Shown here: positions 1,666-26,718 of the stretch, piece by piece
Layout of the letters: each line of letters begins with the position of its first letter
How positions within the stretch are numbered: the first letter of the stretch is position 1
Virus record (IMG/VR): IMGVR_UViG_2909309443_000003
Reading direction: 5' to 3' (one strand)
From: a virus
Taxonomy: Duplodnaviria > Heunggongvirae > Uroviricota > Caudoviricetes
Length of the DNA: 31,051 bases
Translations under genes and position numbers: made by a program
Notes under the pieces: generated by a model
Databases searched by the model: none
Seen by the model: the letters and a program-made list of their open reading frames with translations, nothing else
Told to the model about the DNA's origin: nothing

Positions 1666-4110
1666 TCAATAGTCGTGGGTCATGTTGGCACGCTGGCGGG
1701 CGCGTTTATCGCGCTCAATCTGTTCGAGCGTGTCGCGTAGTTGTCTGTCAAGCTGATGCCCCTGCGCAACACCTCCCGGCAGATTGATGTTGTATTCGCT
1801 TTTGCTCTGGTCAATGTAAGAGCGCCCCGCCGGTGCGGTAACTGGCTGATAAGCCTGATAGCCGCCATATGTGCTGGTTGCCGGGATGTAGGAATTACCC
1901 TGTGTGGCGGCATTGGTTTTGGCGGCGGTCTGGTCGAGGCTGTCCGACTCTTTGTTGATGATGCCGAGCTTTTCGAGAAGCCAGTCGACACCGCTGCGCA
2001 GCTTGTTAAAAACATTGAGCGGAGCCATCAAGGCAGAGGCCAGTGCCTGACCAAATATGACGCCGACATTTTTGCAGCTATCAAGCGTTTCCTGCGTGGC
2101 CTTAACCGGTGCTATCAGGTCTTTAAACCACTGCCAGACGCCGCGCAGTTTCTCGCCGAGACCATCAAAAATGGGAGCCAGTGGAGCGAACATTTCCCCG
2201 ACTGGGGCAAAGGCACTCATGATGCCCTCAATCACTCCCGAGAAAAATGCGCTGATGGGCTCCCAATATTTACGGATGAGTAGCGCCCCCGCCACAATCG
2301 CCGCACCGACGGCCACTATCGGCCAGGTAATCGCACCGAGCGCTGTCGCAATGGCACTACCGACGACAGTAAAGACCGTACCCAGCATGCCAGCAGCGGC
2401 GATAATGGCATTAATCCCCATGACAACCGGCCACGCAACGAGACCAATGCCGCCGATGATACCAATCAGCGCCAGCGCACCACCGGCAATAATCCCGATA
2501 GTTGTCGTCAGCCCTTTGTTTTTCTGGATCCAGCCGTCGAGCTTCAACACGTATTGTGTGGCGGTTTGGGTGAGTTTGCGCAGCGAGCCCTCTTGCTGGT
2601 CAAAAAGGTCGGTACCGACAGCCTCATAAGCAGACTGGAACTCTTTAAAATCACCGCCGAGGTTGTCCTGCATAATTTTAACAAGCTCTGCGGTTTTTCC
2701 GTCTGAGGCTTTCAGGGTGGAGGTTAGCTGGTCAAGTTTGCCGGTTGAGGCGGCAGTCATGAGCACCGCCGCCGCCGAACTGGCTTCCTCACCGAATATC
2801 GTTTTCATGTATTCGGCTTGTTGACCGGTGCCGAGATTGTTACGCTCAAAACTGGCCTGCATTTCCTTGAGGATGGTAAAAATCGGGCGCGTGTTGCCTT
2901 TACTGTCGGAAGTTTTGACACCCAGCTCCTTAAGCGCATCCCACGCTTTACCGGTCGGAGCCTGCAGGCGGCTTAAAACCGCACGGCTCCCGGTGCCGGC
3001 CATCGAGCCGGTGATTTTGGCGTCATGCAGGGCGCCCACCATTGCGGCAGTTTCTTCAATGCTGACACCGGCATTTTTCGCCACCGGCGCGGCGTAGGTC
3101 AGCGCATCGCTCAGCCCGTCGAAATCGGCAGCAGTTTTATTCATCACCGTCGACAGAACGTCGCCAATGTGCGCCACCTTGTCATTGGAAAGCTGAAACG
3201 CAGAGCGCATCCCCATCAGTAATGCGGCGTTTTCTTCCATCGTGCGACGGTTGGCAAGCGCCATATTGAGGGTGACCGGTGTCGTCGCCTGAATGGCTGC
3301 CGCATCGCCGCCCCCTTTGGCGATAATAATCTGCGCACTGGCTGCATCATCAGCAGAAGCGGCTGTATTGTCACCGAGCTGGCGCGCCTGTTTGCGTAAC
3401 GACTGCATTTCTGGCGACTGCTTATCGACCCCGAGCACAGCCTGCAGCTCGGAGTTTTTTTGCGCAAAGTCATAACCGGGTATCAGCAATTTAACCCCGG
3501 CCATCGTTCCCGCTGTCGCAATACCGACCCCGGCAGCACCTGCAGCGGCCATGTTACCGGCAAGCTCCTTACCCGATTTATATCGCTCTTTCACTCGGTT
3601 TAGGTGCGCCTGCTGTGCGCTGACCTTCGCCAATGCTTCACGCTGCCGGTTGAGCTGCGCCGTCGTCTCGCTGATGCGTGTTTTAAGCCCCCGCTCATCG
3701 TTTGCCAGATTGCGGGTATTGATACCGGCGGCACCCAGCTCGCGTTGTTGGCGTTTAACCGACTCGGTGAGGCTGTTGTATTTAACCTGCAGCCCCTCGG
3801 CGGCACGTTTTGCGGATTCGAGCACCTGTGCCTGCGCTCGCGTCGGGCGCTCAGTATTTTTGAATTGCGTGGCAAGCGCTTCAGCCTCGCGCTTTGCCTT
3901 CTCCAGCGACTGGCCGGTTACGGCCAGTTGAGCGCTGGTTTTGCGAAAGCCGTCGATTTTCGCGGCCTGCCCGTTCAGGTCACGCAGCCCTTTTTGTGTG
4001 TCGCGAATATCGCCCGACAGGGTTTTACTCGCGGTCTGGATGGATTTAAGCGGTCGGGTCGCCTGGTCGACCGCTTTCAGCAAAACCTCAAGTCTCAGGT
4101 TATTACTCAT
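1666..4110 (-). CDS. T: tail tape measure protein (P2 gpT family)
   Basis: 814-aa ORF with a coiled-coil-like N-terminal part and a Gly/Ala-rich hydrophobic central block typical of tape measure proteins; sits downstream of E/E'. Confidence 0.9.
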   Translation of the reverse strand: MSNNLRLEVLLKAVDQATRPLKSIQTASKTLSGDIRDTQKGLRDLNGQAAKIDGFRKTSAQLAVTGQSLEKAKREAEALATQFKNTERPTRAQAQVLESAKRAAEGLQVKYNSLTESVKRQQRELGAAGINTRNLANDERGLKTRISETTAQLNRQREALAKVSAQQAHLNRVKERYKSGKELAGNMAAAGAAGVGIATAGTMAGVKLLIPGYDFAQKNSELQAVLGVDKQSPEMQSLRKQARQLGDNTAASADDAASAQIIIAKGGGDAAAIQATTPVTLNMALANRRTMEENAALLMGMRSAFQLSNDKVAHIGDVLSTVMNKTAADFDGLSDALTYAAPVAKNAGVSIEETAAMVGALHDAKITGSMAGTGSRAVLSRLQAPTGKAWDALKELGVKTSDSKGNTRPIFTILKEMQASFERNNLGTGQQAEYMKTIFGEEASSAAAVLMTAASTGKLDQLTSTLKASDGKTAELVKIMQDNLGGDFKEFQSAYEAVGTDLFDQQEGSLRKLTQTATQYVLKLDGWIQKNKGLTTTIGIIAGGALALIGIIGGIGLVAWPVVMGINAIIAAAGMLGTVFTVVGSAIATALGAITWPIVAVGAAIVAGALLIRKYWEPISAFFSGVIEGIMSAFAPVGEMFAPLAPIFDGLGEKLRGVWQWFKDLIAPVKATQETLDSCKNVGVIFGQALASALMAPLNVFNKLRSGVDWLLEKLGIINKESDSLDQTAAKTNAATQGNSYIPATSTYGGYQAYQPVTAPAGRSYIDQSKSEYNINLPGGVAQGHQLDRQLRDTLEQIERDKRARQRANMTHDY

Positions 4111-4590
4111 TGTGGTGTCCGCTACGCTGCAGCGCCTTTTCGCGCCATGTGATGAGCTCGGTCAGGCTCAGGGAATAGAGCTCTGATAGCGGCCAGTGGA
4201 ATATCACCGCGATATCCGCCATCAGGTCATCGGTCGACAGGTCGGGCGGGAAATCTACTCCGCCGAAGCCGGTGACAAAAAACCAATCACCTTAGCGGCC
4301 AGCGACAGCATATCGGGCAGGTTCATTGCGGTAAGCTCCTGCGCCGTAAGCGCGGGGTAGGTCATGCGTGGCAATACCTTAATCAGCGCATCGACTTCGG
4401 ACTGCGCCACCGCTGCCAGACTGACACCGCGCAGGGTACCGGCGTTCGGCTCAATCAGTGTGACTTTATCAATCGTCTGACCGGCGCGCTTAATCGGCTT
4501 GTCGAGGGTCACGACGTTCGGGTTTACGGTGTCAGTTTCATTGCCAGCCATATCAACAAATTCAGCGGTTTTACGTGGTGCTTTTGCCAT
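4103..4590 (-). CDS. E+E': E+E' tail chaperone made by programmed -1 frameshift
   Basis: Hand translation: after slipping on GGT TTT TTG the -1 frame reads VTGFGGVDFPPDLSTDDLMADIAVIFHWPLSELYSLSLTELITWREKALQRSGHHNE and stops at 4105-4103, overlapping the T start codon at 4110. Confidence 0.8.
4255..4590 (-). CDS. E: tail assembly chaperone E (P2 gpE family)
   Basis: 111-aa ORF (MAKAPRKTAEFVDMAGNETDTV...) directly upstream of T; ends GFLSPASAE with a slippery heptamer at the 3' end. Confidence 0.9.
   Translation of the reverse strand: MAKAPRKTAEFVDMAGNETDTVNPNVVTLDKPIKRAGQTIDKVTLIEPNAGTLRGVSLAAVAQSEVDALIKVLPRMTYPALTAQELTAMNLPDMLSLAAKVIGFLSPASAE
4276..4282 (-). promoter_or_regulatory. T6G slippery heptamer (TTTTTTG in mRNA) for the E to E+E' frameshift
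   Basis: Plus strand CAAAAAA at 4276-4282 gives T TTT TTG on the minus-strand mRNA in the E frame, the slippery motif I recall for the P2 E/E' frameshift. Confidence 0.75.
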
Positions 4591-4653
4591 GATGTTTTTC
4601 TCTGCTCTGAATGGGGATTAATAACAGGCCAGCAGTGCTGACCGGTCAGGGAA

Positions 4654-5172
4654 TTACAGCCCGATTGCGCGGCGGTGCTGTTCCAGACGGTCGACGCCGT
4701 TCACCTTCTCAACCATGTTGACGGTATCGATTTCGATGACGTCGCTACCATCAATCGTGAGGCGGTAATAGGTGCATACGGTCGACAGTTTGGTCGAGGT
4801 GTTTTCACCCTGCTTATTCTCGCCGCCGTCGATTTCTTTATGACGGCCACGCATGACCACCTCGACCGCCACGATTTCGCCAGTGTCGTCACGTTGGTAA
4901 GAGCCAGCAAAACGCAACGGCACAGCGTCAGCACCCGGCGCGGCGTACTGCGCCCACAGCGCCACATCAGGCAGGCCACCGACAGACCATTCGACGGTGA
5001 GCGCATCATCGTCGAGACCAAGGTCAATCGCCGCCGCGCCATTCATGCCGCCGCCGCGATAGTTTTCGAGCTTGCGGGTCAGCTTCGGCAGCGTCACGGA
5101 TTCAACAACGCCCATGTAGCTAAGGCCGTCATTGAACATGTTCAGATATTTAAGTTTGCGGGGTAGTGCCAT
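4654..5172 (-). CDS. FII: tail tube protein (P2 gpFII family)
   Basis: 172-aa ORF (MALPRKLKYLNMFNDGLSYMGVVESVTLPKL...) immediately downstream of FI; recognisable FII sequence. Confidence 0.9.
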   Translation of the reverse strand: MALPRKLKYLNMFNDGLSYMGVVESVTLPKLTRKLENYRGGGMNGAAAIDLGLDDDALTVEWSVGGLPDVALWAQYAAPGADAVPLRFAGSYQRDDTGEIVAVEVVMRGRHKEIDGGENKQGENTSTKLSTVCTYYRLTIDGSDVIEIDTVNMVEKVNGVDRLEQHRRAIGL

Positions 5173-5187
5173 GTTGTTTCAGGCTCC

Positions 5188-6366
5188 TTAGCTGTTGACC
5201 GATTCGGCCAGATTCACCAGATATTTATCGGTGATACGCTGGCGCAGGGTCAGGCTTTCCAGTGGTGGAACCGGTGTATAGTCGTAGTCGATATACAGTT
5301 TCCCGGCCTTGAGGGTTTCCTTATCGTTCGATTCCTCGTCGAACCAGCATTCACCGTCCACGATGTAGCCGTTTGATTTCAGCTCGCGGAATTTGGCGTT
5401 AATGCCGTCGACAATGTCACGGATAAGTGATGCGGTGATGGGCTTATCGACCGCCCACATGTGCGCCTCGGCCATCGTGTCGGCCAGCACCTGCGCGGTG
5501 CGGGTGTAGTTCTCAAACAGGAAAAGCGGGTCATCAGAGCAGGTGCGGTTACCCCAAAAGCGGAAGCCATCCTTACGCACCAGTGTCGTGACCCCGGCCT
5601 CGTTGAGCAGATCAGCATCGGTGCCGGATGCCTGCAAATCCCAAAACACTGACGCACTGATGCCGGTAACACCCTGCACGCCGACGTTAGACAGGGTTTT
5701 GTGCCAGCCGACGGTCTGGTCGATATAGGCACGCAGGCCGAGTGCGCGCGCAGTTGCGTATGCCGGTGCGGTGGCGTTTGTGGTGGTATCCCATGCAAGG
5801 AAATCAGGCCAGATGACCATCAGCTCGCGCTGGCTGAAATTCTCGCGATAGGCCATCGCCTCGGAAATGGTTTTACAACCCCATGCGCTGATATAGCCAA
5901 AGGCGCGCAGGCTGATACAGACCGAAGCAAGTGCGACTGCGACCTCTTTGGTATCGAGACCCGGCACGCCGAGAATGCGCGGCTTAACGCCGGTGACTGC
6001 TTCGGCAGTCAACAGCGCCTTGATGCCGGTATATTTACCGTTCTCATCCGTGCCGCCGATGATATTGGAAATGGTCTGCGCTTCGGCGTCTTCTCCGGTA
6101 CCTTCGGCAACACGCACGACAACTGTGACAGGTTTTGACTGGTCGGCGATGGCCTGCAGGGACGCGGCCAGCGTGCCTTTTTTACCGGCTTTCGCAATGG
6201 CGCTTTGCACATTGGTAATCAGTACCGGCTCGTTGAGGGGAAAGGTTGCCGCATCCGCATCGCTGGCTGTACAGACCATGCCGACGATTGCGGTTGCAAC
6301 AGTGGAAATGACGCGGGTGCCGTCGTTAATCTCAAGCACCTGCACGCCGTGGTGAAAATCACTCAT
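5188..6366 (-). CDS. FI: contractile tail sheath protein (P2 gpFI family)
   Basis: Track ORF 5188-6393 trimmed to the ATG at 6366 (MSDFHHGVQVLEINDGTRVISTV...), which has GGAG about 10 nt upstream; 392 aa. Confidence 0.9.
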   Translation of the reverse strand: MSDFHHGVQVLEINDGTRVISTVATAIVGMVCTASDADAATFPLNEPVLITNVQSAIAKAGKKGTLAASLQAIADQSKPVTVVVRVAEGTGEDAEAQTISNIIGGTDENGKYTGIKALLTAEAVTGVKPRILGVPGLDTKEVAVALASVCISLRAFGYISAWGCKTISEAMAYRENFSQRELMVIWPDFLAWDTTTNATAPAYATARALGLRAYIDQTVGWHKTLSNVGVQGVTGISASVFWDLQASGTDADLLNEAGVTTLVRKDGFRFWGNRTCSDDPLFLFENYTRTAQVLADTMAEAHMWAVDKPITASLIRDIVDGINAKFRELKSNGYIVDGECWFDEESNDKETLKAGKLYIDYDYTPVPPLESLTLRQRITDKYLVNLAESVNS

Positions 6367-11832: not shown

Positions 11833-12708
11833 ATGACTTTTAAATCTTTCGCTGCTGCAGCAATGAACAAAATTGATGCCATAAAACCAATAATACAATC
11901 CTTATGCAAAATGAAGCACGTGTTTATTATTTTTATTTTATATGCATTTGGCGTAACACTTGCCTCTATACACTATGGTAATTACAATGATTCATTCCTG
12001 TCTGGGTTCCTAATAAATGCAAATTCATCCATTTTGGATTTTTTTGTATTAGGTGTCATCCTTTATTGCTTTGAATACAGAAGACAAAACAAAGAAACGA
12101 TTAATGAACTTCTTGAGGATTTGGGAAACTTAGCTAAGCACGTTAATGTTGATTTGAAAATACAAAAAATAAAAATAATAAGACAGCTCAACAATAAAGG
12201 TGTCTTCAATATAGACATACCCAGAATGGAGTTGGGTGACCTTTTTACCATTAAATACTTACACTTTAAAACCTCAGAACTATCTGGGTTAAATATGGAA
12301 AAATCTAACATAAGAGACTGTTCTTTCACTGGATGTACAATCCAGGCATTAAATATTAGCAAGAGCAAAATGAAAAACGTAAAATTTATAAAGTGTAAAA
12401 TAAAAAATATTAAAGCTCAGGATTCAAAGTTAAACGGTGTTATTTTTGAAGGCTGCTATTTATATGGTGGGGATTTTTCCAATGCGGAAATGAAAAGTTG
12501 CGTACTCAGAGAGTGTGATTTGGATAAAGTGGAATACACCAATGCAAACCTTAGAAATGCCAACATAATCGATGCAAAAAATATTGACGTGAACAAACTT
12601 ATAGAAGCTAATACACTAGACTATATAGACTGTGATAGTGAAATAGAAAGACAAATCCTATCATCCAGACCAAACACGAAATTTACTAAACGATATTTAC
12701 GAGGCTAG
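11833..12708 (+). CDS. membrane-anchored pentapeptide-repeat protein (AT-rich cargo gene at the S/V junction)
   Basis: 291-aa ORF, opposite strand to the flanking late genes and visibly AT-rich. Two predicted TM helices (about residues 29-48 and 56-80). Residues about 162-255 form roughly 18 consecutive pentads with a hydrophobic residue at position 4 (NANLR, NANII, ECDLD, SCVLR, GGDFS). Confidence 0.7.
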   Translation: MTFKSFAAAAMNKIDAIKPIIQSLCKMKHVFIIFILYAFGVTLASIHYGNYNDSFLSGFLINANSSILDFFVLGVILYCFEYRRQNKETINELLEDLGNLAKHVNVDLKIQKIKIIRQLNNKGVFNIDIPRMELGDLFTIKYLHFKTSELSGLNMEKSNIRDCSFTGCTIQALNISKSKMKNVKFIKCKIKNIKAQDSKLNGVIFEGCYLYGGDFSNAEMKSCVLRECDLDKVEYTNANLRNANIIDAKNIDVNKLIEANTLDYIDCDSEIERQILSSRPNTKFTKRYLRG

Positions 12709-21660: not shown

Positions 21661-22665
21661 ATGGGCGCGGAGATTAATATTTTGGAAACTGATTTTAAAA
21701 TAACCCTCGAAGGTTTCGCTACTGAGCAAGAAGCAAATAATATCGGTAATTTCACACTAGAAGCTATCCGAGCTTTAACAAAGAATCTCAATCTTGATAT
21801 CTCCAAATTAAAATGCGTGATTGTTTCCTATAACTTCAGTGAAGCTCTTCAAAAGGTAACATCCTCTTACCAACACAAATCCCCTAGTTCATTTACCAAT
21901 AGCAAACAGGGCGCAGCCGTCGGGCAGTTAGTAACAAAAATTGGCAATGATGGGCTATATGAAGAATATACCCTTGTGCTATCGATTGATTTTTTTGTTG
22001 AGCTTTTCAATGATGGTAGCTTCTTAAAACTGAAAGAAGAAGGATACCTCGCAGTCATCCATCGCATTCACCATGAATTAGTGCACGTACATGAAAAAAA
22101 CTTACTAACATGCTTAGCCCAAAACTTTACAGTCAACGAGTATGGTAGCGCGCTTCTTATCTCAGCCACGCGTGCATGGTCTGAATATCTCGCTAATTAC
22201 ATGTCTTCGGGGTCTGCCCCTCAAGAAACTGTCGATTTATTTTTAGAGAATCTTGACACTGTTGTAAATGAAGTATCTGACGAGATTGAAAAACTCATCT
22301 GGGGTTATAAGTACGGTAATATTTCTCTGAATGACATGTATCTTGAAGTAAAAAAACGTATCAGGCTAATCATCAACTCTTATGCTTATGCGATGGGTTA
22401 TGTCCATTCTCTAAACATCAATATTAAAGAATACGATCCAAAGCTATCCCTTACACTATCCAACTCAAAGATAAGATATCAATTATCAGAATTAGGCATT
22501 GCTTTTCAGAATCTTTATGGGAAGTTTAATGACCAGCACATTACAGGTTTTGGTGATTTTCGGGAGATAACAATAATCATTGATGAAATATTCAAGCAGT
22601 TTGGGCTTGTTTTAGAGTGTCCCGATTGGTCTGGCGACGGTGAACTCTACATACATGTAAATTAG
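21661..22665 (+). CDS. HExxH-motif protein of unknown function (AT-rich cargo gene between Q and cos)
   Basis: 334-aa ORF, AT-rich relative to its flanks, with no TM segment or signal peptide. His-rich motif HHELVHVHE at residues 137-145 contains HExxH. Occupies the phage-end cargo position next to cos. Confidence 0.7.
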   Translation: MGAEINILETDFKITLEGFATEQEANNIGNFTLEAIRALTKNLNLDISKLKCVIVSYNFSEALQKVTSSYQHKSPSSFTNSKQGAAVGQLVTKIGNDGLYEEYTLVLSIDFFVELFNDGSFLKLKEEGYLAVIHRIHHELVHVHEKNLLTCLAQNFTVNEYGSALLISATRAWSEYLANYMSSGSAPQETVDLFLENLDTVVNEVSDEIEKLIWGYKYGNISLNDMYLEVKKRIRLIINSYAYAMGYVHSLNINIKEYDPKLSLTLSNSKIRYQLSELGIAFQNLYGKFNDQHITGFGDFREITIIIDEIFKQFGLVLECPDWSGDGELYIHVN

Positions 22666-22884: not shown

Positions 22885-22903
22885 ATGCTTTCCCCGCCAC
22901 GCC
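22885..22903 (-). other. cos cohesive-end site (186 type)
   Basis: Minus-strand sequence GGCGTGGCGGGGAAAGCAT is, from memory, identical to the phage 186 cohesive end and differs at 2 of 19 positions from the P2 one. Confidence 0.7.
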
Positions 22904-23063
22904 TGCCCGCTTTATGGGGCGGTTTTAATGCAGTTGCATGACAACTCTGGATCCGCGCTAGCTCTGGCGGCGCACGGACAGAACGGGCAAGACTGACGCA
23001 TGCAAAACCATGCACCTGATGCATGCACGACTAAAAAACGGGAAATTCGCGGAAAAATGGCAT

Positions 23064-23094
23064 AAAAAAACCGGCATTCAGGGTGCCGGTTTTA
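23064..23094 (-). terminator. intrinsic terminator (bidirectional; stronger on minus strand)
   Basis: CCGGCA, 7-nt loop, TGCCGG, flanked by A7 upstream and TTTTA downstream on the plus strand. On the minus strand the hairpin is followed by a U7 run, terminating the LexA-box operon before cos. Confidence 0.7.
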
Positions 23095-23112
23095 GTCTGG
23101 TTTTGTCGCGAT

Positions 23113-23214
23113 TAATGGCCGCGCAATGCGCCAATAACACTGTTGAGGCACATGCTGGCAACAATCATCAGAAAAATCGTCGTCCACGGATTTTCATAAA
23201 CGAGAGATAACATA
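23113..23214 (-). CDS. small hydrophobic peptide (33 aa)
   Basis: Hand-translated ORF MLSLVYENPWTTIFLMIVASMCLNSVIGALRGH with GAGGA about 11 nt upstream of the ATG at 23214; one predicted TM helix. Confidence 0.4.
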
Positions 23215-23229
23215 TTTATATAGTTCCTC

Positions 23230-23423
23230 TTATTTGCGCATTCTGATGTGATTTAACAGGTGTTTGATAACGACTGATAGCTCATCTTTACCGGCCTGCC
23301 CGACCATTTTTGCGGTGTAGCTTTCCACCTCGCGAGAGCTCAGGTCGTTATTTAAAGCCATTAAAGTCAGATTCTTTGCCCAATCGGCAAACGGGTCATT
23401 TTTCGATGAAAGGGGATTTTGCA
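23230..23423 (-). CDS. hypothetical protein (64 aa)
   Basis: Internal ATG at 23423 (MQNPLSSKNDPFADWAKNLTLMAL...) with GAGG upstream. The track ORF extends to a TTG at 23514 that lies inside the upstream repeat element. Confidence 0.5.
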
Positions 23424-23486
23424 TGTCCAAAAACCTCGAATTATTTAACCAGCAGACGGTTGAAGTATTTGCGACGCTATGACCGG

Positions 23487-23555
23487 CTAACGCCTCGCGT
23501 AGCTCGTTGTTCAACCCCGCCAGACCTGAAAGCGAGTTTCAGCTCCGGCGGCGTT
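23487..23555 (-). repeat. 69-bp repeat element, copy 1 (hairpin with GNRA-like loop)
   Basis: About 84% identical to 23892-23960. Contains an extended imperfect inverted repeat around CTGAAA-GCGAG-TTTCAG, immediately 3' of the stop of ORF 23558-23767. Confidence 0.6.
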
Positions 23556-23557
23556 AT

Positions 23558-23767
23558 CTATGGTCGACGTGGTGGCGGTGAGTAATGTGTCGGCTTGCTG
23601 ATGCTATCCAGCTTGCCGTAATTATCCCTGACTATTTCGGCACACCCGACCAGCTCGGCGGGTGTCAAATTCTCATTGACCATTATCTGCTGCAGACGAT
23701 GAACGATGGCCATCAGTTTGATGCTTTTAGTTTTGTGCTGCGGAATTTCGCCCGGTAGTCGATGCAT
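23558..23767 (-). CDS. hypothetical protein (69 aa)
   Basis: ATG at 23767 preceded by GAGGG; sits between the two repeat elements. Confidence 0.5.
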   Translation of the reverse strand: MHRLPGEIPQHKTKSIKLMAIVHRLQQIMVNENLTPAELVGCAEIVRDNYGKLDSISKPTHYSPPPRRP

Positions 23768-23891
23768 ATTATCGCCCTCAATGAATTTTATTTAGCGCTG
23801 CCACAGCGCCACTATAAAACCCGCTAAGGTAACGTCCCATTCATCACTGGTGTGTAACCAATAAAACATCGAGAAACTTTGAGAGGAAGAA

Positions 23892-23960
23892 CTAGCGCCT
23901 CGCGGTGCGAGTTGTTCAACCCCGCCAGCACTGAAAGCAAGTTTCAGCACCGGCGGCGTT
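23892..23960 (-). repeat. 69-bp repeat element, copy 2 (hairpin with GNRA-like loop)
   Basis: Direct repeat of 23487-23555, immediately 3' of the DinI-like gene stop. Stem mismatches on the plus strand (A-C, C-A, A-C) become G-U wobble pairs in the minus-strand transcript. Confidence 0.6.
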
Positions 23961-23962
23961 TG

Positions 23963-24196
23963 TTAATGCAGCCAGCTATCGTCCTCCCATACCTGCTGCA
24001 TGATTTCCATTACTCGTTTTTTATCTTCGTCCAGTTTCAAACCGCTTAGTTCAACGCCATTAGCGGAGCCCTTGCGAATTCGGATAGCAGTCTTTGGGTA
24101 AATAGGTTGAAGATTGCGGTACAGTTCAGCCTCAAGTGCATCCAATGTTGCCTGACTAATTTTTTGCTCTTTATCCAACGTGATATTGATTCTCAT
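23963..24196 (-). CDS. DinI-family protein
   Basis: 77-aa ORF MRINITLDKEQKISQATLDALEAELYRNLQ...MEIMQQVWEDDSWLH; size and N- and C-terminal motifs match DinI/MsgA as I recall it. Lies in an operon behind a LexA box. Confidence 0.75.
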   Translation of the reverse strand: MRINITLDKEQKISQATLDALEAELYRNLQPIYPKTAIRIRKGSANGVELSGLKLDEDKKRVMEIMQQVWEDDSWLH

Positions 24197-24199
24197 AAT

Positions 24200-24382
24200 C
24201 TAATCAGCCTTATAAAAATTATCATCTTCGGTTTCGTTATTCTCGCTGTTTGCTAGGTCTGCAATGAGAGTGAGCGCGAGCTTTAAGTCTGATGGCTTGC
24301 AGTTTGCAATCAGAGATACCTCGGCAATAAATTGCACACAAGCCCACTTTTGCTGCGTTCGGCTGAAATGTTCGCCAACCAT
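24200..24382 (-). CDS. hypothetical protein, first gene of the LexA-box operon (possible antirepressor N-terminal part)
   Basis: 60-aa ORF with GGGAGGG 6 nt upstream of its ATG. In the same frame as the DinI-like ORF, separated only by TAG plus one codon. Confidence 0.55.
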   Translation of the reverse strand: MVGEHFSRTQQKWACVQFIAEVSLIANCKPSDLKLALTLIADLANSENNETEDDNFYKAD

Positions 24383-24401
24383 GAAATCCCTCCCACAGGG
24401 T

Positions 24402-24421
24402 TACTGTATATTTATACAGTA
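24402..24421. promoter_or_regulatory. LexA (SOS) box overlapping the operon promoter
   Basis: TACTGTATATTTATACAGTA is a near-perfect palindromic CTGT-N8-ACAG SOS box, about 20 bp upstream of the ATG at 24382 and overlapping a candidate TTGCCA -35 with downstream -10. Confidence 0.8.
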
Positions 24422-24495
24422 GCACGTATTGGCAAAAGATGGGAAGAAAAAAAACGAATAGAGCGATTGCTGTATGTGCATGATATGGATATGAA

Positions 24496-26718
24496 TTACT
24501 CATGTATTGGTTTTGATGCTTCAGCCATCGCCGCAACACGATTAAGGATTTTCCGAGCTTTAGCCTCATGCGATGGTGCTGCGGAAAATATTTCTCCTTT
24601 GGCCGTTCCGCGTAGCCATTTACCATCAAAACAACTTTTACCACCGGCCATCAGGTGCAGGGCTTCGCCCCGGCTGATATTAATGCCGGTTGTCAGATGT
24701 ATCTCATCGATAGTTTTAGCTATAGCTGCGTTTTGCTCATCCGTTCCGTGGATGAATTTTCGCCGTGCTGCTGGCTTTTGCTTCCTGAGTCGGTTGGTCA
24801 ATTCTCGTCTTTCACGCCGACTCAGTGGTTTTGTTAAATCCAGTATCGGTGGATCGCTTTCGCTTCCCGTACAGTTATTGACAGAACTCCGAGGGACGGC
24901 TTTGCCGTCCTGAAGGTCAACGGCCAAATCAACAGCACGCTTCGGAACAATCTTCCACTGAGTGAGCCGGGTTAAAATCGGGCTTCCTGCACCTATGGAG
25001 GAATCGTAGACCCCCTTAATACATACCGTTTCCTCACCGTACTGATTAAGCTCGGTACGCGGTTCATACAGTGTGCGCACCTGTAAATCATCGCGACGGA
25101 CAAACGGCCCACCCTGAGCATTAACATAACCAGCCCAGTCACCAGCGTCGGCGGCATCATGGACGGCGGCAAACTCAACGCTCAGACCGTGCGCGGTTTC
25201 GGTATCAGCGAGGCGACGCAACTCACGGTAAACCGTCACCGGCGCACCACCAATAAACTGAAACTGACGGATGTGCCAGCGCGCAGCCCATGCTGAAACG
25301 GCGGGGGCTGTCTCTTTCAGCAGCTCACCGCTTTCATCATCGGTTTCACCATCGAGAGCATAACCGTCGATATTTTTTGAAATGTATTTAGCAACATAGC
25401 CGGTTGCGCTGCCTTTCTCCGGGTCAATGGACTCCGCGTGGAAACGTGCTTTTTGGGATTTATCGCTTTTCAGTTCGTGGCGGTCTTCTTTCCATGCGTA
25501 TTTACGGACGATGGAGCGAACATATTCAACATCTTCCGGCAGCATGAACATCAGCATGTGCCAGTGTGGAGTGCCGTCGTGATGGGGCTCGGCGACACGA
25601 ATACCGAAAATACGGACATCTTCCCGATGTAGTTTGGCACGGATACGCGCCCAGATACCGGTTAGATAGTTTTGCGTGTCAGCCGGGCTGGCACCGCTCC
25701 ATTTGCTGTTACGGTAACCGGCTTTAGTCGTGGCGTGATATTTTGACGGCGCGGTTAGAGTGTAAAACTCACCGACATAACCGAGCTCATTACAGATGTT
25801 TTCAAACCCACGAATGCGGGTCATGAGCTCACAGCGGCGAATCGCAGGGTTAGCAACTGAGCCATCATATTTTTCAATTAGGCTGATACGGTTGCCGTCT
25901 TCGTCTTCGAGATCCAGACCTTTGAGAAATTCACGAGTGCGGCGCTTTTGTTCACGCCAGTCAGTCACGCAGTTTTTACTCGCGTAAGTGTTTTTTTTCT
26001 TACTGACGTTGCCGACTGCAATTTGCAGGTGTTCGCGCCACGTAGCTGCTACACGGCGCAAACGACCGCGCCACCACCCATCGTTAAACATTTTGGCGAT
26101 AGCCGGTGCGATTTCATCCGCACCGACATATTTTTTTTCAACCCGCTCCCAATGTGGTGGGATAACGTTGAATTGGAGGGAAATAAAGCCAGCACGAATA
26201 TACCAGGTGTACAGCGTTTTAAGCTCGCCGAATCCGTGGTCATTAATGTTGGCAAGTTCACCACGAATGAAATTAGCAATATCAGCGGCCAACAGGTCAA
26301 CATCAGCGCGCGACATGTCCGGGAGACGGTTATATCGGGCGACCATATTAACCATGCGTGACGACAGATATTGCATTTGCTGAGTATCAAAATGACTTCC
26401 AAAAACAGCGGTTGATACCTTGCTGTTGATACCAGCGCATTCGTATTTTTTTGCGACCAGTTCAAGACGCGGCAATGCCTTTTTGCAGAAGCTGATTAAA
26501 AATGCATTGGCTCGTTGACTACCCTGATTTTGTTCCAGCACCGCAGCAGTGCGATAAACATCTAACCGCACGCAGTCGGGCTGGAGAGAAAGCACCTTTT
26601 TTGCATGCAGCAAAGCCGCGAACATACGGTCGCGGCGATGCTGTTGCTCATAAGTAAGGTATGGGCTGGAGATTGCCGACCGTGGGACGTTCCACGGATA
26701 AGCGAATTGAACAGCCAA
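24496..26718 (-). CDS. A: rolling-circle replication initiator (P2/186 A protein family, HUH endonuclease)
   Basis: 740-aa ORF with an HUH-like motif (GTPHWHMLMF) and a Tyr-containing active-site motif (YVAKYISK). Confidence 0.85.
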   Translation of the reverse strand: MAVQFAYPWNVPRSAISSPYLTYEQQHRRDRMFAALLHAKKVLSLQPDCVRLDVYRTAAVLEQNQGSQRANAFLISFCKKALPRLELVAKKYECAGINSKVSTAVFGSHFDTQQMQYLSSRMVNMVARYNRLPDMSRADVDLLAADIANFIRGELANINDHGFGELKTLYTWYIRAGFISLQFNVIPPHWERVEKKYVGADEIAPAIAKMFNDGWWRGRLRRVAATWREHLQIAVGNVSKKKNTYASKNCVTDWREQKRRTREFLKGLDLEDEDGNRISLIEKYDGSVANPAIRRCELMTRIRGFENICNELGYVGEFYTLTAPSKYHATTKAGYRNSKWSGASPADTQNYLTGIWARIRAKLHREDVRIFGIRVAEPHHDGTPHWHMLMFMLPEDVEYVRSIVRKYAWKEDRHELKSDKSQKARFHAESIDPEKGSATGYVAKYISKNIDGYALDGETDDESGELLKETAPAVSAWAARWHIRQFQFIGGAPVTVYRELRRLADTETAHGLSVEFAAVHDAADAGDWAGYVNAQGGPFVRRDDLQVRTLYEPRTELNQYGEETVCIKGVYDSSIGAGSPILTRLTQWKIVPKRAVDLAVDLQDGKAVPRSSVNNCTGSESDPPILDLTKPLSRRERRELTNRLRKQKPAARRKFIHGTDEQNAAIAKTIDEIHLTTGINISRGEALHLMAGGKSCFDGKWLRGTAKGEIFSAAPSHEAKARKILNRVAAMAEASKPIHE

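Follow-up and report, generated by a model that had tools for sequence, protein, structure and literature searches.

Short palindromic repeats lying directly behind stop codons are best known from the repetitive extragenic palindromic (REP) sequences and the bacterial interspersed mosaic elements (BIMEs). These repeats are known to stabilise the upstream mRNA, and a REP located within ~15 nt of a stop codon reduces translation. The intercistronic hairpins of the T7 RNase III type also provide the upstream message with a protective hairpin at its 3′ end. Here, we describe an element, named E, which occurs twice in a stretch of 31,051 nucleotides from a Caudoviricetes virus (IMG/VR record IMGVR_UViG_2909309443_000003; this whole stretch is called the window below). 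The window is a P2-family prophage of Escherichia coli and belongs to the 186 branch; both P2 and 186 are textbook examples of temperate phages. Between gene A, encoding the replication endonuclease gpA, and the cohesive-end site (cos) lies a hotspot packed with anti-phage defence genes, and the exchange of its content is an open question (PMC9122126). E lies in this interval.

Structure and spread of the element E

A repeat search revealed one two-copy family of direct repeats in the window, at positions 23487-23555 (copy 1) and 23892-23960 (copy 2), each 69 nt long, with a spacing of 405. The original prediction had described two such repeats as about 84% identical and as abutting stop codons: the repeats are real, their identity is 87%, and each copy starts 2 nt past a stop codon (the hairpin base AAC is at 23960 and 23555). 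When the minus-strand RNA was subjected to energy folding, both copies formed a hairpin of 18 pairs, interrupted by a single 1x1 mismatch. The energies were -31.3 kcal/mol in one copy (z -3.7) and -35.9 kcal/mol in the other (z -4.6), and none of 200 shuffles matched them. Folding was weaker on the plus strand, at -22.9 kcal/mol (z -2.2) and -25.6 kcal/mol (z -1.6), since the G.U pairs of the minus strand are A.C mismatches there. The stem mismatches seen on the plus strand are therefore wobble pairs of the minus-strand RNA, as had been proposed, and a stem position covarying between the copies could also be located: at pair 15-35, copy 1 has A-U where copy 2 has U.G, a change on both sides. 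At position 16-34, the G/G of copy 1 corresponds to a G.U in copy 2.

The earlier statements that the repeats are neither intrinsic terminators nor a CRISPR array likewise hold. There is no U-tract, the hairpins being adjoined by GGUUGAACAAC; a terminator scan does not flag them, and the real terminator lies farther downstream (Table 1). The two copies stand 405 nt apart with a protein-coding gene between them, and no locus carries more than two. In an Rfam 15 scan, no family reached its gathering score anywhere in the window, and the sole match to E at an E-value of 10 or less within 23000-24500 was a chance one to mir-998 on the plus strand. A coding explanation was also rejected: the copies are read in different frames on both strands, and their variable positions form one block that is not codon-like.

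The search of related prophages confirmed that the two repeats are members of a large family of structured elements. Phage 186 shares with the window only these 72 nt (93% identity), which lie, unannotated, between orf97 and the terminator t95b and inside the annotated p95 (SOS) transcript; this supports the proposal that the structure belongs to the operon transcript. A covariance model built from nine copies was used to search 79 gpA loci from different Enterobacterales species. It detected 31 sense-strand copies, namely 22 in 20 of the 79 loci and nine in the window and five phage records, and a second, broader model added no further copies. By scanning viral contigs for the conserved 3′ tail of E, at least 120 loci were obtained, with 93 distinct sequences among the matches listed; figures from the metagenome tail scan given below likewise refer to the matches listed. 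Among complete E. coli genomes, 1,073 of 5,426 contain the tail, at 1,191 places in total; the P2-family portal gene was counted at 3,291 places in 2,552 genomes, so that about a third of the P2-family prophages carry E. By our estimate, E is present in ~36-40% of these prophages and absent from ~60%; P2 itself and the host dinI locus are without it. E was also found in other Enterobacterales.

The genomic place of E is constant. In all loci with enough flank, E is on the gpA-sense strand, 0.3-4.8 kb downstream of gpA and before the opposite-strand portal gene, and this placement is kept even where gpA is only 36% identical to that of the window. E. coli genomes that have any E have a median of one place, and all of the inspected places are between the gpA and portal genes of P2-like prophages. 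Apparent occurrences outside phages were traced to the same setting: the plasmid matches and those at "position 2614" come from P2-like prophages whose records begin with gpA, several records having been rotated to this gene, and a pair of E copies on opposite strands (locus L138) represents two phage ends around an ISL3 insertion. Insertion sequences adjoin E in L138 (ISL3 transposase, 4477-5697) and in L069, where an IS3-family orfA lies ~100 nt past E (12540-12614). P2-like prophages were seen on large IncC conjugative plasmids of several genera (as in L209, plasmid NZ_CP104682.1), where E is followed by a convergent reverse-transcriptase gene; L210, recorded with them, is a chromosomal prophage and carries an additional retron Ec48-type pair. 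E is not annotated in the records of 186, PSP3, Wphi and P2-EC58. None of four E signature strings was found in the searchable literature in a phage context (one string matched unrelated work only), and an earlier mention in older papers on the region is possible. E is thus apparently an undescribed, conserved structured non-coding element of the phage operon.

E consists of a hairpin (P1), a short second hairpin (P2) and near-invariant flanks, AAC…GGUUGAACAA…GGCGUUAG. P1 is an 18-bp hairpin whose stem sequence is free and whose pairing is kept; many stems share no sequence at all. Among 90 distinct homologous sequences, 93.9% of the stem cells are paired, 14 of the 18 pairs show change on both sides, and 276 cells are compensatory. 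The covariation score is 0.525 as compared with 0.250 in shuffles, and pairing falls to 30-54% when one partner is slid. The structure on the operon-sense strand is therefore maintained by structure-preserving substitutions, as predicted. Because the element follows at least four unrelated ORF (open reading frame) families, a recent duplication of a gene 3′ end, which had been named as the refuting case, is excluded. G.U combinations outnumber A.C ones by 152 to 29, which assigns the helix to the gpA-sense strand, although this asymmetry cannot tell RNA from single-stranded DNA of the same sense. The fixed features of P1 are AAC and GUU at the base, usually with an adjoining G/G mismatch, A-U pairs at the top and a CUNGN loop.

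Several further interactions and motifs of P1 were considered and rejected. A pseudoknot between the loop (CUCGC) and the tail (GCGAG) was compatible with 93% of the first 31 sequences, but in the wider set CUGGN or unrelated loops make up about one fifth; it is also sterically unlikely, since it would pair all five bases of the pentaloop. Pairing of a variable NNN block with the 3′ arm of P1 fits, by eye, the 186-type copy alone, and a Chi-like GCTGGCGG in the 3′ arm is restricted to one stem subfamily. The antisense of the 3′ arm (GTTCAACCCCGCCAGC; plus strand, 23918-23934 and 23513-23529) agrees with the E. coli tmRNA 3′ terminus (GTTCAACTCCCGCCAGC) in 16 of 17 positions. The tmRNA gene is a common phage attachment site; this match occurs in one stem subfamily only and is probably due to chance.

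Beyond what had been predicted, the most conserved part of E is its 3′ 26 nt, which hold the second small hairpin, and the element borders a variable region. This tail, GAACAACGAG(c)nnnGCGAGGCGUUAG, is near-invariant and is composed of the linker GAACAA, P2 and GGCGUUAG. The mean pairwise identity of the tail is ~0.84 even with its variable loop counted in, as compared with 0.71 over the final 90 nt of dinI and 0.53 in the stem arm. Over the 60 nt after UUAG it is 0.33, the random level; homology between phages ends exactly at UUAG. We propose that in P2 the two CGAG strands may pair as C-G, G.A, A.G and G-C, closed by C-G around a variable loop of 3-4 nt. When this segment was left free in the metagenome scan, the closing pair was C-G in 30 matches, U.G in 9 and U-A in 3, and the next pair was G-C in 37 and G.U in 7. 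Furthermore, three sets of copies, unrelated to one another in P1 stem and in context, have CUCGC as the 5′ strand, both G.A pairs being converted jointly, to U-A and C-G. This support is suggestive and is below that for P1. An alternative helix (P0) between AACGYY and GGCGUU is 90% compatible and without covariation, and the fold is speculative.

Other explanations of the tail were not supported. Its likeness to cos (GCGAGGCG) is a match of 8 nt only; the 186-type cos is GGCGTGGCG, and the distance from E to cos varies. Neither an acceptable -10 element in the tail nor a hit in a promoter scan was found.

Gene context and boundaries

The position of E relative to the upstream gene was examined in 148 copies. 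P1 starts 0-8 nt past the stop codon in 118 of them and exactly 2 nt past it in 75. The upstream ORF is most commonly DinI-like (89 copies), followed by gp37-like (20), 186-orf97-like (13) and TumA-like (3) ORFs, and no terminator separates E from the same-strand upstream ORFs.

The downstream side was surveyed in 164 distinct contexts. An ORF starts within 15 nt after E in 64 contexts (~39%). ATG is at +2 or +3 after UUAG in 55 of these; here, in about one third of all contexts, the GAGG of the tail is the ribosome-binding site (Shine-Dalgarno sequence) for the gene that follows. Such downstream ORFs belong to one family, PHROG 2100, in 52 of 57 cases. In 62 contexts, the 120 nt after E include a T-run, as would fit a terminator; the 186-type copies, in which E is followed by ~22-24 nt and then t95b, show this arrangement. 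The remaining 38 have other content, including convergent cargo. The E-to-cos distance is 165-1,937 nt in the 52 loci whose cos was located. The PHROG 2100 proteins, the products of the commonest gene after E (L040, L050, L012, L038, L095 and others), have 85-110 aa, no known function and the motif VYRG...WVFFQRPKE.GGGYWLG. In L089, L090, L097, L145 and L161 a LexA box lies between E and this gene, which makes it an SOS gene in its own right in those phages. A comparison of family co-occurrence identified no phage protein family common to every E-positive locus and missing from every E-negative one, and the idea of a dedicated phage protein partner was set aside.

The boundaries of E coincide with breakpoints between related phages. 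When the window was compared with loci L006 and L008, insertion/deletion breakpoints were found exactly at the 5′ start and at the 3′ end of E. On the plus strand, 4 nt from copy 1, lies a 19-codon remnant (MSKNLELFNQQTVEVFATL*; 23423-23482) of a 143-aa convergent gene that is intact in L006 and L008. The remnant is a deletion scar, one end of the deletion being exactly at the 3′ edge of E.

The two-copy loci have a common architecture. In all 10 loci examined, the tail of the distal copy is perfect, the proximal tails carry 2-5 substitutions that differ among loci, and both hairpins are intact; the spacing is 405 nt in nine loci and 397 nt in L014. In the window, the 3′ flank of the proximal copy is changed to GCGCUAG. 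This pattern suggests that one full copy per operon is kept.

The features of the window are listed in Table 1. On the minus strand, the order is gene A, LexA box, TumA-like ORF, DinI-family ORF, repeat copy 2, 69-aa ORF, repeat copy 1, 64-aa ORF, 33-aa hydrophobic ORF, terminator and cos. The LexA box shows that "SOS operon" is the right label for this unit. The portal gene of the window is 100% identical to that of several E. coli chromosomes. Over 23000-24500, the Salmonella phages SI22 and SW9 share 92% identity with the window, and this region also matches tumA/tumB of PSP3.

Table 1 Features of the window around the two copies of E
Feature	Position	Strand	Remarks
gpA rolling-circle replication endonuclease (gene A)	24496-26718	minus	E always downstream of gpA, on the same strand
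gpA nick region (ori), conserved part, inside gene A	24874-24890	minus	
LexA box CTGTATATTTATACAG, upstream of the operon	24404-24419		cf. 186 p95/LexA annotation
TumA-like ORF, first gene of the SOS operon	24200-24382	minus	PSP3 tumA annotation; PHROG 1993
DinI-family gene (TumB-like)	23963-24196	minus	Pfam PF06183, E-value 7e-24; stop TAA 23963-23965
E, proximal copy (repeat copy 2)	23892-23960	minus	starts 2 nt past the DinI/TumB-like stop; covariance-model match 97 bits
P1 hairpin, proximal copy	23918-23960	minus	AAC, 1x1 G/G mismatch, 15-bp stem, loop CUUGC, then GGUU
P2, proximal copy, "type B" CUCGC-ACC-GCGAG	23899-23911	minus	all pairs Watson-Crick
69-aa ORF between the two copies of E	23558-23767	minus	PSP3 gp37 family, PHROG 11386; stop TAG 23558-23560
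E, distal copy (repeat copy 1)	23487-23555	minus	starts 2 nt past the stop of the 69-aa ORF; tail is the exact consensus
P1 hairpin, distal copy	23513-23555	minus	
P2, distal copy, CGAGC-UAC-GCGAG	23494-23506	minus	proposed closure C-G, tandem G.A/A.G, G-C, C-G
Invariant tail GAACAACGAGCnnnGCGAGGCGUUAG, distal copy	23487-23512	minus	inter-phage homology ends at its last base
Bidirectional intrinsic terminator, equivalent of 186 t95b, operon end	~23066-23095		
cos, cohesive-end sequence (GGCGTGGCGGGGAAAGCAT on the minus strand)	22885-22903		583 nt past distal E

Two further ORFs of the window deserve mention. The last frame of the LexA-controlled operon, just ahead of the terminator, encodes 33 strongly hydrophobic residues (MLSLVYENPWTTIFLMIVASMCLNSVIGALRGH; 23112-23213, minus) and gave no match in Pfam and PHROG; it resembles a type I toxin-like product or a small membrane peptide. 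A 334-aa ORF (21661-22665, plus) occupies the site between the portal gene and cos at which P2-like phages carry their cos-proximal cargo. Its only match is PHROG 11743, a family of unknown function, and it has no Pfam domain; it is a candidate cargo or defence gene of the hotspot.

Possible modes of action

Given the selection on sense-strand structure, the tie to stop codons, the transcription in 186 and the lack of a phage protein partner, we tentatively favour the reading that E is a cis-acting structured RNA module in the SOS/early-operon mRNA of P2/186-family phages, although we would give it somewhat less than an even chance. The data establish the family, its two helices, their strand, the placement relative to stop codons and genes, and the sharp boundaries; that the active form is RNA, and that it serves as a stabiliser, insulator or coupling device, we infer. 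P1 would cap the upstream cistron and shield it from 3′-to-5′ exonucleases. A terminating ribosome would open the base of P1, so that the state of E may depend on translation of the upstream gene. The P2/tail domain may provide a recognition surface for a host factor, the partner of E presumably being of host rather than phage origin. The functional RNA domain would end exactly at UUAG, and downstream cargo would then have no effect on the conserved operon. Where a gene follows with its AUG 2-3 nt past UUAG, the GAGG of the tail would serve as its Shine-Dalgarno sequence.

Several points weigh against this reading. Both the G.U/G.T asymmetry and the sheared G.A pairs fit RNA and same-sense single-stranded DNA alike. 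A plain stabiliser hairpin needs no invariant 26-nt tail, and the tail is equally perfect where no ORF follows, as in the 186-type copies, so that ribosome binding cannot be its general function. The 186 transcript has its annotated 3′ end at t95b and not at E, which speaks against efficient cleavage at UUAG. About 60% of the P2-family prophages, P2 among them, lack E, which is therefore dispensable. Finally, breakpoints exactly on both edges of E could indicate activity at the DNA level.

Action as single-stranded DNA is in our view unlikely, yet it is the alternative to be taken most seriously. gpA nicks ori within its own gene and is presumed to displace the sense strand, on which E would fold ~1 kb downstream; E might then be a lagging-strand initiation signal (ssi/sso-like), or a hairpin site of breakage and joining that forms the left junction for cargo exchange. 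The G.T and tandem sheared G.A pairs are stable in DNA too. The hairpin is strand-specific, and its constant location on the gpA-sense strand, 0.3-4.8 kb past gpA, agrees with this idea. By inspection, the gpA ori has a like architecture, a small hairpin with varying yet complementary arms followed by a conserved 3′ tail. In the ori of the window and of loci L006-L204, the hairpin precedes a conserved CTCGGAGTTCTGTCAATAACTG, and its stems include GGCGC/GCGCC, GACGCG/CGCGTC and AGCGGC/GCCGCT, among others. Both edges of E coincide exactly with breakpoints that separate related phages, homology ending at TTAG in all contexts, and the mechanism of gene exchange at the gene A-cos hotspot has been stated as unknown (PMC9122126). 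However, when the E tail was aligned locally to three types of ori site (CTCGGAGTTCTGTCAATAAC) in both orientations, the alignments were no better than those of shuffles (p 0.15-0.96). The absence of E from most relatives means that it is not needed for replication, and the constant 2-nt distance to the stop codon, as well as the use of GAGG for ribosome binding, is unexplained at the DNA level. Moreover, loci have no more than two copies, with a single spacing in all two-copy loci but one (L014), which suggests one ancestral duplication rather than repeated capture of cassettes. The stronger claim that E is the DNA site of cargo capture or swapping in the P2 family, its hairpin being cut and joined exactly at TTAG on the strand displaced by gpA, appears to us quite improbable; if true, E would be an integron-like, SOS-linked point of gene capture at the edge of an anti-phage defence hotspot.

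The remaining explanations were weighed against the same data. It is distinctly unlikely that E is the body of a trans-acting RNA, a small RNA derived from the 3′ untranslated region or a protein sponge, that is released from the operon transcript and uses the invariant single-stranded parts as a seed or binding site. The end of the 186-type transcript (P1, tail, ~22 nt, then an intrinsic terminator with a U-run) has the usual layout of such RNAs, and the extreme conservation of 26 nt across phages whose gpA is 36% identical fits a conserved host molecule; against this, an ORF follows E directly in ~39% of the contexts, leaving no terminator near, the window contains no complementary site, and no small-RNA family of Rfam matches. 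Duplex energies with rRNA (16S, 23S and 5S), tmRNA and three tRNAs were all within the range of shuffles, and pairing with these molecules was rejected. A modifier of elongation, acting as a put-like antitermination RNA or as an ops-like RfaH site that lets transcription reach the foreign cargo, is improbable. E does place two hairpins in ~70 nt of RNA just ahead of cargo or a terminator, and its end, GGCGUUAG, resembles ops (GGCGGTAG), two copies being exactly GGCGGTAG. In ops, G5A abolishes the recruitment of RfaH, and T11/G12 are needed for the pause (PMC5995543); nearly all E copies have T at position 5, conservation stops at UUAG, and the JUMPstart model of Rfam gives no match. A put-like role leaves the proximity to stop codons and the retention of the distal tail alone unexplained, and the 186 transcript is annotated as ending just past E, at t95b. 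Least credible of all is that E has no function for the phage and is a REP-like selfish or relic repeat or the by-product of one duplication. Its accessory occurrence (~36-40% of the P2-family prophages) and its sharp edges in several contexts would suit this view, but compensatory change pervades both helices, the tail is more conserved than the adjacent coding sequence, and E is limited to one genomic interval and orientation, unlike dispersed REP elements or miniature inverted-repeat transposable elements.

Whichever mode applies, E is a sharply bounded, strongly constrained and apparently unannotated element in about one fifth of complete E. coli genomes, situated exactly where conserved phage sequence turns variable. 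As an RNA module, it would be a compact and portable device for 3′ ends and translational coupling and a new handle on the tuning of the Tum/DinI induction operon; if it acts on DNA, it could explain the turnover of the hotspot. In either case, E merits an Rfam-type family and annotation in P2-like prophages.

Comparison with known systems

The REP/BIME sequences resemble E in being imperfect palindromes that are transcribed in operons directly past stop codons and have sharp edges. They differ in their hundreds of dispersed chromosomal copies, whereas E occurs about once per genome, in P2-family prophages only, at one locus and in one orientation; E also has an invariant 26-nt tail with a second hairpin and lacks the GTAG-plus-palindrome signature. 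The intercistronic hairpins of the T7 RNase III type are, like E, non-terminators conserved between the cistrons of phage operons. E differs from them in its sequence-invariant tail with the putative tandem-G.A hairpin, and the annotated 3′ end in 186 is at t95b.

Integron attC sites are also similar to E in several respects. Both lie directly past ORF stops in one direction, have a stem of free sequence and kept structure, fold in a strand-specific manner, and mark the edges of variable genes governed by an SOS-controlled promoter; AAC/GTT is conserved at the hairpin base, and GTTGAAC of E fits GTTRRRY. On the 5′ side, however, E has ACAAAC, GATAAC or GCAAAC, unlike the inverse core RYYYAAC, and only 3-4 bp form. 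The extrahelical bases of attC are missing, the sole irregularity of E being the conserved 1x1 G/G mismatch beside AAC/GUU. attC sites form arrays, whereas E does not exceed two copies per locus, and nothing in attC corresponds to the long invariant tail. An integron integrase was not seen near E, and no protein family co-occurs with it, no search having been aimed at recombinase genes.

HUH origins and ssi sites (the gpA ori, the sso of rolling-circle plasmids and the ssi of phiX174/G4) share with E the combination of a variable hairpin and a conserved adjacent tail on one strand, and E lies in cis with the gpA ori, downstream and on the same strand. The two have no common sequence, E can be dispensed with in most relatives, and the comparison offers no explanation for its link to stop codons. 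The ops/JUMPStart element (GGCGGTAGnnTG, non-template strand) depends on G5, T6 and T11/G12, while E has GGCGTTAG in nearly all copies and is unconserved beyond. The put RNAs of HK022 are, by description, similar to E in size (~70 nt), in their two stem-loops, in their two copies per phage genome and in acting in cis on the sense transcript; put sites lie just past early promoters, whereas E is at the 3′ end of the operon, abutting stops. A kink-turn is defined by tandem sheared G.A pairs beside a 3-nt bulge and a canonical helix; in E, the tandem G.A pairs are suggested by the two CGAG strands and their joint Watson-Crick conversion, and a canonical helix would form only in the speculative P0 fold. 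Among the REP elements, attC sites, phage intercistronic hairpins and put RNAs, E fails the defining tests of each family to which these could be applied. What it has in common with structured cis-regulatory RNAs in general is its covarying helices on the transcribed strand and its fixed position relative to genes.

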